A stretch of DNA of 64,000 nt from Candidatus Thorarchaeota archaeon (lineage in GTDB: Archaea; Asgardarchaeota; Thorarchaeia; Thorarchaeales; Thorarchaeaceae): NCBI GenBank assembly GCA_963726195.1, contig CAVSBO010000018.1, positions 55,894 to 119,893 of the forward strand, given 5' to 3'. Below are positions 30,696 through 37,761 of this stretch, piece by piece. The stretch's first letter is position 1. Every line of letters starts with the position of its first letter. Below the pieces are notes generated by a model. That model did not search any database and had not been told where the DNA came from. It worked only from the letters and a program-made list of their open reading frames with translations. The translations under genes and the position numbers were made by a program.

Positions 30696-30754
30696 TGCTC
30701 AACAGTGTGCAGGCTAGATGGGTAGGCTCTCCTAGCTATCCACTACGCCTGTAC
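30696..30754 (+). other. 5' arm of the pre-16S processing stem
   Basis: TGCTCAACAGTG (30696-30707) pairs with CACTGTTGAGCA (32507-32518); GCTATCCAC (30735-30743) pairs with GTGGATAGC (32473-32481). Confidence 0.8.
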
Positions 30755-31718
30755 TTCATCAAGCTCACTCAAAGTGTGCATAAACGTGCATGACGGTCGA
30801 ACCTAGTTCGATTTACCTTGCCGGTCATGTGCGATATCGGGATGACTCTAGTCGATCCTGCTAGAGGGCACTGCTATCGACTTGGGGCTAAGACATGCAA
30901 GTGGAACGAACTCGCATCCGAGTTCGTCGCGAACGGCTCAGTAGTGTCGTTAACTTACCCTGTGGAGGTGGATAACGCCGGGAAACTGGCGGTAATACAC
31001 CGTAGGAGCGTCGTTCTGGAAATGATGTTGCTCTGAAATGGCGGTCCTAGGCATGTGGGATCGTCCGCCGCAGGACGGGACGGCACCGGATCATACTTGT
31101 AAGTGGGGTAATGGCCCACTTAGGTTTTGACCCGAACGGGCGATGTAAGTCGTGGCCCGGAGAGGGGCACTGAGACAAGGGCCCCAGCCCCACGGGGTGC
31201 AGCAGTTACGAAACCTCAACAATGCGCGAAAGCGCGATTGGGCCAAGTCGAGTGATGGGGGATAACTCCATCTGTAGTGGATCCTTAGTACGGACCACCA
31301 GAAAGGAGAGGGCAAGGCTGGTGCCAGCCGCCGCGGTAAAACCAGCTCTTCGAGCGGTGCCCACAATTATTGAGCTTAAAGCGTCCGTAGCCTGTTTGGT
31401 AGGTCCCTGCTCAAATCCGGCCGCTCAACGGTCGGACTGGTAGGGATACCGCCTTGCTGGGGGACGGGAAACGGCGACGGTATTCCACAGGTAAGGGTGA
31501 AATCTTATGATCTGTGGAGGACCACCAGTGGCGAAGGCGGTCGCCGAGAACGTGCCCGACGGTGAGGGACGAAACCCAGGGGAGCAAAGCGGATTAGATA
31601 CCCGCGTAGTCCTGGGCGTAAACGATGCCCGTTAAGTGTTGCATTGGCCACGAGCCACTGCGGTGCTGAAGCGAAAGCGATAAACGGGCCGCTTGGGAAG
31701 TACGGTCGCAAGGCTGAA

Positions 31719-31788
<70 letters not shown>

Positions 31789-32350
31789 GCTTGCGGTTTA
31801 ATTGGACTCAACGCCGGAAAACTTACCCGGCCAGACAGCCGAATGAGAGCCAGACTGACGATCTTGCTCGACGAGCTGAGAGCTGGTGCATGGCCATCGC
31901 AAATTCGTGCCGTGAGGTATCAGCTTAAGTGCTGCAACGAATGAGATCCCTGCCACGTAGTTGCCAGCCGGGGGTACAAACCCCGTCGGGGCACACTACG
32001 GGGACCGCCAGCGATAAGCTGGAGGAAGGTGGGGGCCACGGTAGGTCAGTATGCCGCGATATGGCCGGGGCCACACGCGTGCTACAATGGCAGCGACAAT
32101 GCGTCACAACACCGAGAGGTGAAGTCAATCGCCAAACGCTGCCGTAGTTGGAATTGTGGGTTGGAACTCATCCACATGAACCTGGAATCCCTAGTATCCG
32201 CGTCTCACTACGGCGCGGAGAATATGTCCCCGCTTCTTGCACACACCGCCCGTCGCTCCATGCGAGCGGCCTTGGGGTGAGGCGGCGTCCATAGGATGCT
32301 AACGAATCTTGAGGTCGCAAGTAGGGAGAAGTCGTAACAAGGTATCCGTA

Positions 32351-32546
32351 GCGGAAGCTGCGGATGGAAGAAGATGAGATTTCCTCACCTTCCATCAATC
32401 ACCTCCTATGCTTTCTACCATAGAGGTAGAAGCGGCTTGTTTCTGCTCTTCGGAGCAGAGGGGTACTGGCGGGTGGATAGCGTACAAGGGGACTTGCCCT
32501 AACTGGCACTGTTGAGCACCCTATTTCTTTCGCACAGGTTTGTCAT
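32351..32546 (+). repeat. Repeat copy 1: 16S 3' end plus trailer
   Basis: 196 bp, ~10 mismatches to 34885-35080. Confidence 0.95.
32369..32398 (+). other. 30-nt BHB-like hairpin intron in 16S (after E. coli A1531)
   Basis: GATG-GA^A-GAAGATGAG-ATTTC-CTCACCTTC-CATC-AA^T; removal restores GCGGATGGATCACCTCCT. Confidence 0.85.
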
Positions 32547-32601
32547 GTCCAGTGCAGGAGCTGCTTGATTCTTCGGGGTGCTGTTAGCATAAAGCCGCTG
32601 G

Positions 32602-33066
32602 TTATCCTTCTGTTGCGATTCGCCTGCTCAATGCTCGGGCTCTTGCCAGTTCTTCCGTTGGTGAGTCGTCGTTACAACTGTCCATGTAGTGTTGGTAGGC
32701 ATCGATGCTTTCCTTGATGTAGTCCCCTGCCTCGGCGAGGTCTTTCTTGCGCTTGGTAATCCTTGCGAGTTCGTACGGGGTCCTAGCCAGGTCGAGTTCC
32801 AAGATTGGGTCTTGCTTGATTAAGTCCCTAATCAATGTCAGCTTCTTTTCGAGGTCAGTACGAGTTGTCCCGAGCTTCATTATGTCTTCAAGCTGAATTT
32901 CATGCAGAATTCGTGCCAGACTTGCAAGAAGCTGGGGGTAGTTCTCGACCCTTTTCTTGGTTGCATGCTCTTCGAAATAGTCTTTGGCGAAGTTGGAAAT
33001 AGCGATCTTTGCTTCTCTCGTGGCGCTCCTCATTGTCCAAGAGTGTGTGGGGTCGACTTGATTCAA
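32602..33066 (-). CDS. Hypothetical helical (TPR-like) protein, cassette A; possibly a fragment
   Basis: 154-aa ORF with an amphipathic helical pattern. Confidence 0.55.
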   Translation of the reverse strand: MNQVDPTHSWTMRSATREAKIAISNFAKDYFEEHATKKRVENYPQLLASLARILHEIQLEDIMKLGTTRTDLEKKLTLIRDLIKQDPILELDLARTPYELARITKRKKDLAEAGDYIKESIDAYQHYMDSCNDDSPTEELARARALSRRIATEG

Positions 33067-33086
33067 AACCGCGTATCGCAGACGTT

Positions 33087-33728
33087 TCAGAGTCTTCTTC
33101 TGAGGTACGCGACCGATAATACTAGGACAACAGCCCCGGCTAGCACTCCACCTGCCAAGAGGTTCACTGGCATACCTTCTGAAGTTGAGGTGGGAGTCGA
33201 GGATTGTGTACGATACAGTGCACAGTAGGAGTAATTGACAGTATCAGATATGCTCCATCTGCCAAGGCTGTCCTGTGCATAATACTCCACGTTCCACACT
33301 TTCAGCCTGTGATCTGGGTCTAAGACAAACGTGGTAGCATTCGCATAATACGAGTATACTTCGGTATACTTGGAATTGTTGACGGCCCAGGTGCCCATGT
33401 AGGTCATGGTAACGTTCGTCCAAGTGGGGTCAGCATTGTCCTTGTAGCTGCCTATGGTCAAGTTCATCCCATTTGAATCCCCTATCCACACGGAAAGTTC
33501 GAGGACGAAACTCCAGGGAAGGGGTCTCGTATCTGCAGTCGTATCAACTATCAATCCAGAAAGGTCGACGAAGATAGGGCCCTCAGAGTTTGAACAGGCA
33601 AATGCTTTCGCATTTGTTGCAATAGGGGGCGCAACGAATAGGAGGGAGACGAGGACTGGTAGAACAAACATCGCGCACCTGATTCCACTAGCATAGATTC
33701 GCATGTTTACCACCGTTGCACTACCCAC
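33087..33728 (-). CDS. Secreted protein with C-terminal TM anchor, cassette A
   Basis: Signal peptide, YYAQDSLG.W, S/T-rich linker, TM followed by RRR. Confidence 0.8.
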   Translation of the reverse strand: MGSATVVNMRIYASGIRCAMFVLPVLVSLLFVAPPIATNAKAFACSNSEGPIFVDLSGLIVDTTADTRPLPWSFVLELSVWIGDSNGMNLTIGSYKDNADPTWTNVTMTYMGTWAVNNSKYTEVYSYYANATTFVLDPDHRLKVWNVEYYAQDSLGRWSISDTVNYSYCALYRTQSSTPTSTSEGMPVNLLAGGVLAGAVVLVLSVAYLRRRL

Positions 33729-33909
33729 GCAAGATGAGTAGTCCAGCTGCTTGCCGCATAGTGCGGCGTAGCCCAGTCTCTCTGATCAATTGTAAAGTAC
33801 ATATCAGTCTTGTAGCCACTATGTATGTTCGTGCGCTTTGATATACATTTGTCGATTTGCGAAGGCTTGGCGCGTCTCTTGTATGAAGCATGTGCAGTTA
33901 AGATTGGTA

Positions 33910-33966
33910 GTACTGGCGGGTGGATAGCGTACAATGGGACTTGCCTAACTGGCACTGTTGAGCACC
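33910..33966 (+). repeat. Repeat copy 2 of the 16S trailer (57 bp)
   Basis: GTACTGGCGGGTGGATAGCGTACAA...AACTGGCACTGTTGAGCACC, nearly identical to 32463-32520. Confidence 0.95.
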
Positions 33967-34060
33967 TGTTCGTTTTCCTAGGAACCAAACTTGCTCCTGT
34001 GCATGTTGGGAGCGCTTCTTTCGCATGGTTAGTGCCTGAGTCTCTCTATGCTATGCACGC

Positions 34061-34478
34061 TTACATCGCAGTCGGGTCGAGCCGAGTCAACCCCTTTATT
34101 CTGTCATAGACCTGATCCGTGGAGGCAATGGTATGGTCTGGATTGTCTTCGCTGAGTGAAACTGCTGCGTAGATTGCATCAAAGATGGATGGCAATTGGT
34201 AGTTCTCCAGAAGAAACAATGCGGCTGAGCTGATGGTCAATCGTTGTCGGAACAACTGATAGATTGGGGAACGCCACGATGTGACTCATGACGTCTCGAA
34301 CTGAGGCCACGCCAGTGATGTTCCTCAAGACGTAGTACAGCTCAATCGAGAAGGCACTAGGGATTACGACATTGCCTAACTCTCCATTTCTTATCTTTGA
34401 GAACAAGCGAATTGCATGGGGCTTGAGGTAGTCTTCTTTCTTGTAGAAAGCCAGAATCATATCATTCTCAATCAACAC
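34061..34478 (-). CDS. vapC: VapC/PIN toxin; apparent frameshift at ~34227
   Basis: LIENDMILA, SIE, SIFDAIYAA, STD..YD acidic PIN residues across two frames. Confidence 0.85.
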
Positions 34479-34710
34479 TCCGACTCTTCCTCCGCCATCT
34501 CTTGGACACATCCTTGGTAGCCTCAGTTTCTCCCTGTTGGAGAAGCTCAGCAATGGAACCCTGAACATCCAATTCAGGCTTCTCAGAGGGCACCGGAAAG
34601 AGAATATGGTAGGCTCCGAGACTGAGGAGAAGGAATGTATCTCCCTCTAGTGCAGCTTTCTTTGGGATTCTGATGCGTCTCTGACCATCCATTCGAACTC
34701 TTGCTATCAT
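34468..34710 (-). CDS. vapB: AbrB/MazE-type antitoxin
   Basis: RMDGQRRIRIPK swapped-hairpin motif; overlaps the PIN start; TGATATAA direct repeat upstream. Confidence 0.8.
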   Translation of the reverse strand: MIARVRMDGQRRIRIPKKAALEGDTFLLLSLGAYHILFPVPSEKPELDVQGSIAELLQQGETEATKDVSKRWRRKSRSVD

Positions 34711-34884
34711 AAAGAACATCTCGAATAGTGATATAACTGACATGATATAAGGATGTGGATGAAATACGCAGTTTGTGGACGAAATGCCGCTTTTTCACCA
34801 ATCTATCGTCGTGCCAGAAATCAACGCTGCCAGAACATGAAATGTGGTACGGTCTAGGCCGCGCGAAGGGCCACTCCTTTTGCT

Positions 34885-35080
34885 GCGGAAGCTGCGGATG
34901 GAAGAAGATTAGATTTCCTCGTCCTCCATCAATCACCTCCTGTGTTTTCTACCATAGAGGTAGAAGCGGCTTGTTTCTGCTCTTCGGAGCAGAGGGGTAC
35001 TGGCGGGTGGATAGCGTACAAGGGGACTTGCCCTAACTGGCACTGTTGAGCACCCTCTTTCTTATTCACAGGTTTGTCAT
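34885..35080 (+). repeat. Repeat copy 3: orphan 16S 3' end (degenerate intron, anti-SD) plus trailer
   Basis: ~95% identical to 32351-32546; central ~110 bp identical. Confidence 0.95.
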
Positions 35081-35123
35081 TCTTAGTGTGCAAGCTGTTT
35101 GATGTCTGTAGGCGATGTTGACG

Positions 35124-35408
35124 TTAGGGTACCGGTTGGCTTACTCTCTCGATTGCCTGAAGTACTTCGTCCACCTTCTTCTGAGAGAGAATCGTTCTGA
35201 CCGCATCAAGTTCGAGCCGATTTCTTATTATGACACCTATCTTATTGATTGGATTTCCGCTCTTGTCAATCGGATTGACCTCAATAGCTAGATAGGCTGG
35301 TTCATCCTTTGATTGAGGTATCTTTCTGATGAATATCCCGGGCTCGGTAGTCCTCATGCGTTCGAATCTTCTTCCGTGCTTGAGCATATCTCTCAGTGAT
35401 TCTTCCAT
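35124..35408 (-). CDS. Small conserved-looking archaeal hypothetical protein, cassette C
   Basis: 94-aa ORF (FERMRT.EPGIFIRKIP, LAIEVNP); SD GGTGA. Confidence 0.75.
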   Translation of the reverse strand: MEESLRDMLKHGRRFERMRTTEPGIFIRKIPQSKDEPAYLAIEVNPIDKSGNPINKIGVIIRNRLELDAVRTILSQKKVDEVLQAIERVSQPVP

Positions 35409-35494
35409 TCAAATCACCCGGTCATCCTAGTTGTAAGGTGTGCGCAGAGCTCCGACTCTCTTGTACCATTTGGTATATCGACTCAGGTCTTAGT

Positions 35495-35515
35495 CTTACT
35501 GTCACTGTTGAGCAC
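35495..35515 (+). repeat. Repeat copy 4 of the 16S trailer (21-bp remnant)
   Basis: CTTACTGTCACTGTTGAGCAC versus CTAACTGGCACTGTTGAGCAC (19/21). Confidence 0.75.
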
Positions 35516-35602
35516 TGTCTATGTTCTTGTGCATTGAATCAACATTAGTCCATGTCAGAAGGTCTGCGTAATGCAGCCATGCCTTGAGCTCTGGCGGACT
35601 CT

Positions 35603-37045
35603 CTAGCTCAGCTTCTTGGCTCTCTGCTTGATTATGTCCCTCATCTTGGCCTCAACATCTTTGTCCAGCGGTGGTATCTTATGGGTCTCAAGAATCCTCT
35701 TGACTTTCTCCTTGGCTCGCTGGACTATGTCTTTCGATCCTTTTGCTTCCCAGTCTGGTCTCGAAGTCCTATCAGTAATCCAAGGTTGCCAGTATTCCTC
35801 TCCGACATACTTCCTAGAGAACTCAAGAGCATCATCGTTTGTGAAATGATTGCTATCGTGTCCGACTTTGTCTATGATATCGACCGCTAGAGTCTCTTTC
35901 GTTACTTTGATGCCCTCTGCAATTCGTTTGATTGCCCCACAGATTTCATTGCTGATTGCGAACTGCTCATAGGAAGCAGTTATTCCCGTCTCGACGATTC
36001 CATAGACTGCGTCATGCACGACATCGGCACCGGCCAGAGTGGCAACGAGCACATTCAGAGCATTCTCGTATGCGGCTTGGGAATCCGGAACCTTCGAGTC
36101 GCTAATGCCACAGGCCCCGTAGTATGGAATGCCATAGTAATGGGCCATTTGACACATTGCAGCATGAATCAGACCATTCTCTGGTGCCCCATACGCGGCA
36201 GTGCCATGTCTCTGGTCTAGGATTGTGCCGCCTGAGCCCCACATGATAGGGGTTCCAGAACCGACGAGTTCTGTAATCACGACGACCGTATGATTCTCTG
36301 CTATGCCCTGTACGATTGATCCTGCAAGCGTAGCCGGAGCACTTGCGCCAGACAGCAAACCTGTGCTGATGTCAAATGGAATTCTGTATTTCGCGCATTC
36401 AAGGATTATGTCGATAATGTTTGCGGTATACTTGAGTGGGGGAACACTATTGAGACCCGTGTCAATCCAAATCGGATTCCTGACGAATTCCTCTTCTCCG
36501 CCGACGAATATCTTCGCCATTTCAATGATGTCTCTGAATGCCTGTAAGCTTGTTGCAAAGAAGCTGCTGTGCTTCTCAGTGTTCTTGAGCATCGAGAGAG
36601 CCATCGTTTGTTCCTTTATGCCATCGGGTACGTCCTGCGGGATTATGTTCGCCTTTACATAATCGACAGTAGGGAAGTAGTCTGAGAGAAGCGTAAACTC
36701 CTCCAAGTCTTTCAATGTCGAAGGCCTGCGTTCACCGGTCTCCAAGTCATATGTGTACTGTGCTCCGAAGGCGTTCGTGTAATAAGAGCCGCCGTCACCT
36801 ACCACGAAGTTGTGTTTCGGGTTTCGCGCCTTCATGAGATGACGACTCGGGGTCTTCTTGAGGGCTTCGCGAACGAGGAATTCCGGGATTTTGGCCACTT
36901 TCTTCCTTTCATCAATGATTGCTCCGGCTTCCCCAAGAATCCGAAGAGCTTCTTCGTGTTGAATCAGTATGCCAGTTCTTTCAAGAACCTCCATCGCAGC
37001 CAAGTGTATTGCATGAATGTCGTCACGACTCATCAGTTCAAACAT
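35603..37045 (-). CDS. mttB: MttB-superfamily methyltransferase (non-pyrrolysine)
   Basis: APATLAG, YGAPE, GISDSKVPDSQAAYE, TLAVDII.KVG; no in-frame TAG. Confidence 0.9.
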   Translation of the reverse strand: MFELMSRDDIHAIHLAAMEVLERTGILIQHEEALRILGEAGAIIDERKKVAKIPEFLVREALKKTPSRHLMKARNPKHNFVVGDGGSYYTNAFGAQYTYDLETGERRPSTLKDLEEFTLLSDYFPTVDYVKANIIPQDVPDGIKEQTMALSMLKNTEKHSSFFATSLQAFRDIIEMAKIFVGGEEEFVRNPIWIDTGLNSVPPLKYTANIIDIILECAKYRIPFDISTGLLSGASAPATLAGSIVQGIAENHTVVVITELVGSGTPIMWGSGGTILDQRHGTAAYGAPENGLIHAAMCQMAHYYGIPYYGACGISDSKVPDSQAAYENALNVLVATLAGADVVHDAVYGIVETGITASYEQFAISNEICGAIKRIAEGIKVTKETLAVDIIDKVGHDSNHFTNDDALEFSRKYVGEEYWQPWITDRTSRPDWEAKGSKDIVQRAKEKVKRILETHKIPPLDKDVEAKMRDIIKQRAKKLS

Positions 37046-37110
37046 AGATTCTCCTCCTGTTCTTTCGTCACCCTTCTCTTGCGCCCGCAGTTTGGCAAAA
37101 CAGACCGGAA

Positions 37111-37761
37111 TCACTTCTTCTCCACAAGTCGCTTGGCAAGACTTGCCGCTGTTACGGCGTCACCCGCCCATCCATCAGCTCCGATGTCTCTCGCCCACTT
37201 TTCAGTAGTAGGAGCTCCTCCGATTATCACTTTGACCTTGTCCCGGAGTCCAGCTACTCTGAGTTCATCAATAATCTTCTTCTGCACTGGCATGGATGAT
37301 GTTATCAGCGATGACATCCCAACGATGTCGGGTTTCTGTTCCTTCACGTTCTTCACGAACACCTCAACTGGGACGTCTTCGCCTAAGTTTATGACCTCGA
37401 AGCCATTGGCTTCAAGCATTGTTGCTACAATGTCCTTGCCTATGCTATGGATGTCTCCTTGGACTGTGCCTATGATGACTTTCCCAACAGTCTTCATTTT
37501 CCCCTTTGTCGCTTTGAGTTCCCCCAGAAGCACGGCCATACCAGCTTTCATGGCCTTGCCCGACGCCATTAGTTCCACGAGGAATACCTCCCCTTCCCCG
37601 AACTTGTCACCGACTTCTCTGACACCCTTTGCCAGTCCGTTTGTGATTGCTTCAAGAGGTGGAATCTTTGCTTCCAGCGCCTTCCTTGCGGCTTTTTCTG
37701 CCTCATCCTTCTTTCCTCGGATGACTGCCTGTCTTAGTTCTTCAAGAATCGCGGATGACAT
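37111..37761 (-). CDS. Cognate corrinoid protein
   Basis: GTVQGDIHSIGK B12 motif, IGGAP, IGADG. Confidence 0.95.
   Translation of the reverse strand: MSSAILEELRQAVIRGKKDEAEKAARKALEAKIPPLEAITNGLAKGVREVGDKFGEGEVFLVELMASGKAMKAGMAVLLGELKATKGKMKTVGKVIIGTVQGDIHSIGKDIVATMLEANGFEVINLGEDVPVEVFVKNVKEQKPDIVGMSSLITSSMPVQKKIIDELRVAGLRDKVKVIIGGAPTTEKWARDIGADGWAGDAVTAASLAKRLVEKK

Follow-up and report, generated by a model that had tools for sequence, protein, structure and literature searches.

The single-copy 16S rRNA gene of this Candidatus Thorarchaeota archaeon carries an insert of 30 nt that separates helix 45 from the anti-Shine-Dalgarno (anti-SD) tail UCACCUCCU, at a site equivalent to E. coli 1531/1532 (A1531, U1532). 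Judged from its sequence and its covariation among relatives, the insert is probably a relaxed bulge-helix-bulge (BHB; hBH-type) mini-intron, removed from pre-16S rRNA by the splicing endonuclease EndA and the ligase RtcB. The rRNA and tRNA genes of this Thorarchaeota family contain many mini-introns of this sort. The element thus belongs to a known kind and involves no new mechanism; what is new is its site and the lineage.

Architecture of the 16S 3′ end

The window, that is, the whole stretch of DNA analyzed here, is 64,000 nt long. An archaeal 16S rRNA match to Rfam RF01959 lies at 30845-32377 (1320 bits, model positions 1-1478). With the tail UCACCUCCU included, the gene spans 30845-32407 on the plus strand, with the mature 3′ end at ~32407, and it is the sole 16S rRNA gene in the 2.9-Mb, 89%-complete assembly. 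The Rfam alignment is regular up to helix 45 (32343-32366, plus strand; UAUCCGUAGC-GGAA-GCUGCGGAUG, as assigned from the alignment, folding and energy evaluation) and the adjoining G-A (32367-32368). Past this G-A the alignment breaks and the tail is left unaligned, 30 nt further on, which agrees with the original prediction of an interruption directly before the anti-SD. The tail itself, identified by sequence at 32399-32407 (plus strand), is the 3′ exon, and it is invariant across the insert alignment.

Downstream, the 16S 3′ trailer (32408-32520, plus strand) folds into two hairpins followed by the 3′ strand of the processing stem (32455-32518). Cofolding with the trailer locates the 5′ leader strand at 30696-30764 (plus strand) and gives 54 intermolecular pairs at -78 kcal/mol, corresponding to a 54-bp pre-16S processing stem. 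The 23S rRNA gene is on another contig (G000 C15:7193-10274) and is ~95 nt longer than the Rfam model; given this location, the 16S and 23S genes appear to be unlinked. A separate feature of the trailer is complementarity between the anti-SD with its next 3-4 nt (CCUCCUAUG or CCUCCUAAG) and a downstream CAUAGAGG or CUUAGAGG, located in the window within 32399-32440. By eye, the two sides of this pairing change together in the trailers of L002, L005, L041 and L049; the helix is absent from the minimum free energy (MFE) folds of the trailer. In the precursor, this downstream complement may hide the anti-SD.

The probable mini-intron occupies 32369-32398 (plus strand) and reads as: a single nucleotide; the first strand of a 9-bp stem; an AUUUC loop; the second strand of the stem; a CAUC guide; and AA. 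Limits of 32368-32397 fit the sequence equally well, as both versions begin and finish on A. The insert joins helix 45 to a single strand and extends no helix. Here, the four final nucleotides of helix 45 (GAUG, G32363-G32366) also form the exon side of the central helix of the BHB, a 4-bp duplex with CAUC (C32393-C32396). The two bulges are 3 nt each, at 32367-32369 (GA|A) and 32397-32399 (AA|U), and each lies 3′ of its own central-helix strand, which is the handedness and strand order of a true BHB. Within the insert, the inner stem pairs 32370-32378 with 32384-32392 over 9 bp, with one A.C mismatch, and is closed by the AUUUC loop at 32379-32383. The geometry reproduces the GAUG/CAUC helix with GAA and AAU bulges that had been proposed together with the EndA cutting rule: cuts past the second nucleotide of both bulges give GGAUGGA|UCACCUCCU, the same junction as in insert-less relatives, and restore the universal GGAUCACCUCCU.

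The outer helix had been anticipated to be weak. It is a single base pair (G32362-C32400), short of the strict hBHBh′ motif. With an inner helix of 9 bp and an outer helix of 1 bp, the insert has the relaxed hBH form. The anticipated competition between the BHB and helix 45 is also reflected in the calculated energies, which are -23.8 kcal/mol for the helix 45 fold and -20.0 kcal/mol for the BHB fold; the isolated helix 45 plus hairpin is steadier by 3.8 kcal/mol. The local MFE structure for the window sequence is a slipped continuous helix, GAUGGAAG/CUUCCAUC. This slip is impossible in L004, L039 and L061, which marks the bulged form as the conserved one.

The energies bear on a different interpretation, in which the insert is a micro-expansion segment whose hairpin is kept in mature 16S rRNA, forming a stem on the surface that stands between helix 45 and the anti-SD. 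In keeping with such retention, the most stable local fold leaves helix 45 intact with the insert as a free hairpin, and the site lies near the 3′ end on the platform/subunit surface, where a retained hairpin may be sterically tolerable. However, a retained hairpin has no need for a conserved CAUC(AA) that pairs and covaries with the helix 45 strand, and retention leaves unexplained both the exact 3-nt bulges and the fixed length of 30-33 nt across sequences. Retention is unlikely on these grounds, and two further observations described below, an identical 16S sequence without the insert and the same module at sites where it could not be tolerated, also argue against it.

Distribution, covariation and sister inserts

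In a genome of the same genus (G003), the last ~260 nt of the 16S gene are 100% identical to those in the window and are without exactly these 30 nt. Across the 86 genomes of the family, the insert form is found in 17 and the insert-less form in 27. When sequences are matched to loci, the insert is inside a bona fide 16S gene in 13 of the 86 genomes, representing seven genera. The same insert type is found at the same site in 41 stretches of a species-genome collection (one genome per species, 185,579 species) and at 53 places on metagenome contigs. This recurrence, in 17 family genomes and in both of the larger collections, indicates that the insert is not an assembly artefact. In the scan of 185,579 species, true inserts at 1531/1532 are confined to three groups: the Thorarchaeota family; L039, a MAG labelled Heimdallarchaeota; and L061, a divergent MAG labelled Thorarchaeota. 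Among bacteria, the pattern matched either spacers that contain a second TCACCTCC motif or, by chance, coding DNA; these matches are not inserts and were set aside.

The original prediction suggested a search for covariation at the 3′ ends of Asgard 16S genes. In 28 distinct sequences, 94.8% of cells are paired, as compared to 86% after shuffling and 33-57% when the partner is slid. Two-sided changes occur in 10 of the 13 pairs, including all nine inner-stem pairs. The central helix between exon and intron is paired in 28/28 sequences, and all four of its pairs form in 53/53 metagenome instances. This helix also covaries, with A-U replaced by C-G in the other Asgard lineages L039 and L061: helix 45 there contains GCUG instead of GAUG, and the intron contains CAGU or CAGC. 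Both helices covary, including the exchange of GAUG/CAUC for GCUG/CAGC in two lineages. Together with the presence and absence of the insert among close relatives, this fits the predicted intron. The quality of pairing also depends on context, with one mispair across 14 sequences in real 16S genes versus ten across 14 in the displaced tails described below. The cleaner structure in working genes points to selection on the RNA. The ends of metagenome contigs are uninformative on retention versus splicing: of the 53 contigs that carry the insert, none stops at the mature 3′ end, and the shortest tail is 24 nt.

The 1531/1532 insert is accompanied by others of similar build. A second mini-intron of 31 nt, near E. 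coli 908, lies in the same gene at 31719-31749 (plus strand). This is a full BHB that includes the outer helix, with a GCUG/CAGC central helix and AAA and GAA bulges; excision restores GGCUGAA|ACUUAAAGG. G003 and other relatives have inserts of 30-31 nt at this site, and the range among relatives is 30-55 nt. An alignment of sixteen 16S genes from relatives identified 30-nt inserts at many sites: ~908; ~1345; ~1390; 1499/1500; the GGAA loop of helix 45; and 1531/1532. The inserts at 1499/1500 (GUCGUA^ACAAGG), found in L005, L011, L012, L015 and L017, adjoin the decoding site. Their central helix forms 3-4 of its four pairs, the inner stem is mostly 9-10 bp, the outer helix is absent, and the loop is often AYUUC. 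In G022 (L014), three tandem 30-nt hairpin units are located within the GGAA loop of helix 45, the site of the dimethyl-adenosines.

A tRNA gene of the genome under study shows this relaxed build too. The tRNA-Arg(GCG) is called by ARAGORN only once a 30-nt T-loop insert is excised; here, the central helix borrows bases of the T-stem and the outer helix is 1 bp. The genome-wide scan with a generic BHB mini-intron pattern was unspecific (324 matches versus 272 in the reversed-sequence control), and the filtered matches alone were used. Two of the three T-loop candidates gave no ARAGORN tRNA call after insert removal and were rejected. As function requires the removal of inserts that adjoin the decoding site or interrupt the dimethyl-adenosine loop or a T-loop, the host machinery evidently handles this architecture. 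For the same reason, the presence of this module at 1499/1500, in the helix 45 loop and in the tRNA T-loop, where retention would destroy function, weighs against a hairpin kept at 1531/1532, as does the lack of an insert in the 100% identical sister 16S of G003.

Displaced 16S tails and the DNA between them

A second copy of the insert, at 34903-34932, had been noted in the original prediction as support for the first. The copy exists, but it does not provide independent support, being part of a displaced tail in which the intron hairpin is decaying. This partial 16S tail, from the helix 45 loop through the trailer, is located at 34885-35154 (plus strand) and forms a direct repeat (D1) with 84% identity to 32351-32620. 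Its intron copy has four changes in 30 positions, of which two break stem pairs. Between the two tails lies ~2.5 kb of DNA (32522-35056, unstranded) that is extra in comparison with G003, as judged by blastn of G003 against the window. It contains small minus-strand ORFs, which match no Pfam, NCBIfam or PHROG family, and a trailer remnant at 33910-33978. Within it, a two-gene module at 34061-34743 (minus strand) consists of a 91-aa ORF followed by an apparently split ORF of 129 aa plus 64 aa. The module has no Pfam match and is kept at 64-87% amino-acid identity beside displaced tails in L059 and L067. A by-eye assignment of this module as a VapBC-like pair was not confirmed on family search.

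Further downstream, a degraded trailer remnant of repeat family D2 (35486-35528, plus strand) precedes mttB-like and corrinoid protein genes, which are extra relative to G003 at this place. The MttB-family ORF at 35603-37114 (minus strand), with the corrinoid protein gene next to it, is 503 aa long and uninterrupted, with no in-frame TAG. It contains a marginal Rfam match to PYLIS_3, a pyrrolysine insertion element, at 36007-36106 (40.7 bits versus a threshold of 38).

In many Thorarchaeota (L053, L078, L079, L080 and L081 among them), displaced tails form arrays with a spacing of 1-3 kb. Each tail is made up of a partial helix 45, the insert where the lineage has one, the anti-SD, both hairpins, the processing-stem strand and a T-rich end. 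The array cargo includes GNAT acetyltransferases, ABC-2 transporters, methyltransferases, an AlkZ-like glycosylase, an HNH endonuclease and small uncharacterised ORFs. In G012, the array tails are insert-less. In G067, the order is a 16S gene with an insert-less tail, a 439-aa ORF, the HNH endonuclease gene, and a displaced insert-bearing tail. With respect to duplication of an att-type site, direct repeats of the 16S tail flank the 2.5-kb insertion relative to G003, and no integrase was found beside the tails in the window and 12 other loci, the sole find being the HNH endonuclease of G067.

As read from these sequences, the arrangement looks like the product of cassettes that recombine repeatedly at helix 45, with each event swapping the working tail and shifting the old one downstream. 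Recombination of this kind would explain both gain and loss of an ORF-less intron by co-conversion. Co-conversion has been documented for a Pyrobaculum hairpin intron (PMC4496867), and in Heimdallarchaeum, mobile elements are documented to have inserted immediately downstream of the single 16S gene (PMC8813620).

If the insert matters only at the DNA level, as a passenger within an att-like 16S-tail module that serves recombination, its RNA structure would be incidental. The repetition of tails from helix 45 to trailer beside cargo genes in many Thorarchaeota is compatible with this, as is the common trailer hairpin of insert-bearing tails across genera. So is G067, in which the intron-bearing tail is 2.8 kb downstream of the intron-less 16S tail, past the HNH endonuclease gene. 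Against it, compensatory changes preserve the RNA helices, and the structure is cleaner in working genes than in displaced tails. Moreover, the G012 arrays are built from insert-less tails, which shows that arrays do not need the insert, and the window and sampled arrays yielded no integrase. Taken together, these observations make a purely DNA-level role very unlikely.

Proposed splicing and its relation to known systems

The genome encodes two EndA paralogs (PF01974; 188 and 210 aa), with coordinates C11:18295-18549 and C16:239978-240238, and an RtcB ligase. Asgard EndA is reported to be of the (αβ)2 type, with an L1 loop that confers broad specificity (PMC5829648), and circular pre-16S transcripts have been reported in Asgard archaea (PMC12918454). 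With removal of the insert as a mini-intron as the favored interpretation, we infer the following course of cleavage and ligation and its order relative to the other processing steps. In the precursor, GAUG of helix 45 would quit its helix 45 partner and pair with CAUC near the 3′ end of the intron. This pairing would display the two 3-nt bulges 4 bp apart, beside the 9-bp hairpin of the intron. The (αβ)2 EndA would then cleave past the second base of both bulges, and RtcB would ligate ...GGAUGGA to UCACCUCCU, freeing the 30-nt intron, probably as a circle. As the mature 3′ exon is only ~9 nt, EndA and RtcB would have to act ahead of Nob1-type 3′-end trimming. During splicing, the trailer would be tethered by the 54-bp processing stem or by a circular pre-16S intermediate, and the tether would keep the short 3′ exon in position for ligation. 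The intron itself appears to be gained or lost along with the whole 16S tail, through DNA cassettes recombining at helix 45.

Short (<50 nt) hairpin BHB introns are known from 16S rRNA genes of Thermoproteales, Desulfurococcales and Aigarchaeota (Jay & Inskeep 2015, PMC4496867). Like the insert described here, these lack an ORF and combine a hairpin with a BHB; they are located in conserved 16S regions, are sporadic among relatives, and can spread by co-conversion with adjacent DNA. The loci listed for archaeal 16S introns are 374, 548, 722, 781, 803, 901, 907/908, 919, 978, 1093, 1205, 1213 and 1391 (PMC4496867). Position 1531/1532 is absent from these 13 loci, in line with the original prediction, and it lies outside their range of 374 to 1391; 1499/1500 and the helix 45 loop are likewise missing. 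The Thorarchaeota insert differs further in its Asgard host, as compared to thermophilic TACK hosts, and in having no outer helix, a mature 3′ exon of ~9 nt and a stereotyped length of 30-33 nt. Full-text literature searches returned no account of rRNA introns from Thorarchaeota, nor of any at helix 45.

Three other systems share parts of this arrangement. The non-canonical tRNA introns of Asgard archaea and Thermoproteales (PMC11291895, PMC5829648) use the same enzyme system and the same relaxed motif, whereas here the motif lies in 16S rRNA and competes with helix 45 of the mature RNA. BHB motifs in pre-16S/23S processing stems (PMC7714728, PMC12918454) engage EndA and ligase on the same precursor, and their circular pre-16S product would tether a short 3′ exon. 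Those motifs are, however, assembled from distant leader and trailer and excise the flanks, whereas the motif of the insert forms locally, within the mature sequence. Finally, the mobile elements HeimM2/HeimV2 of Heimdallarchaeum, which sit precisely between tRNA-Arg and the one 16S gene (Wu et al. 2022, PMC8813620), are also insertions on the 3′ side of an Asgard 16S gene with endonuclease cargo. In contrast to these, the cassettes described here are 1-3 kb, a duplicated 16S tail beginning within helix 45 borders each insertion, and no integrase was seen.

The joined exon is the anti-SD, which means that a failure to complete ligation, or cleavage within subunits already assembled, would leave part of the 30S population lacking an anti-SD. 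Among ~1,740 long ORFs, a minority have SD-like motifs that peak 10-14 nt ahead of the start codon, and this genome-wide peak indicates that the anti-SD tail is in use. The narrower claim that many genes in the window use GGAGGTGA did not hold: there are four matches versus 2.5 expected, and two of the four are reverse complements of the anti-SD copies. It is highly doubtful, although conceivable, that splicing at 1531/1532 is a checkpoint or regulated step and that the intron-bearing tail is a swappable module supplied by cassettes recombining at helix 45. If such a checkpoint exists, translation would shift between SD-led and leaderless mRNAs.

The switch put forward in the original prediction, in which EndA cleavage without ligation or with regulated ligation leaves some ribosomes without an anti-SD, is very unlikely and found no supporting evidence. 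The very short 3′ exon and the genome-wide use of SD-like motifs, by which loss of the tail would matter, are in its favor, and MazF/RtcB editing of the E. coli 16S tail, as outlined in PMC5416887, offers a conceptual precedent. However, the sequence gives no sign of regulation, sister introns that share its build and sit at essential sites need efficient ligation, the intron is optional among near-identical relatives, and the 54-bp processing stem tethers the trailer, favoring ligation.

These findings add Asgard intron sites in the final 45 nt of 16S rRNA (1499/1500, the helix 45 loop and 1531/1532) to the archaeal list. As these sites are at or past the 1492R primer binding site, amplicon work misses the introns they contain. 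The 3′ exon of only ~9 nt also makes this intron a simple, naturally occurring case in which to test the order of the steps in rRNA maturation. The recurrence of relaxed BHB motifs that borrow bases from mature helices suggests that these are routine substrates in this Thorarchaeota lineage. In addition, the arrays of displaced tails suggest that the 3′ end of the single rRNA gene is a recombination hotspot for accessory cassettes, and this may explain how ORF-less introns come and go.
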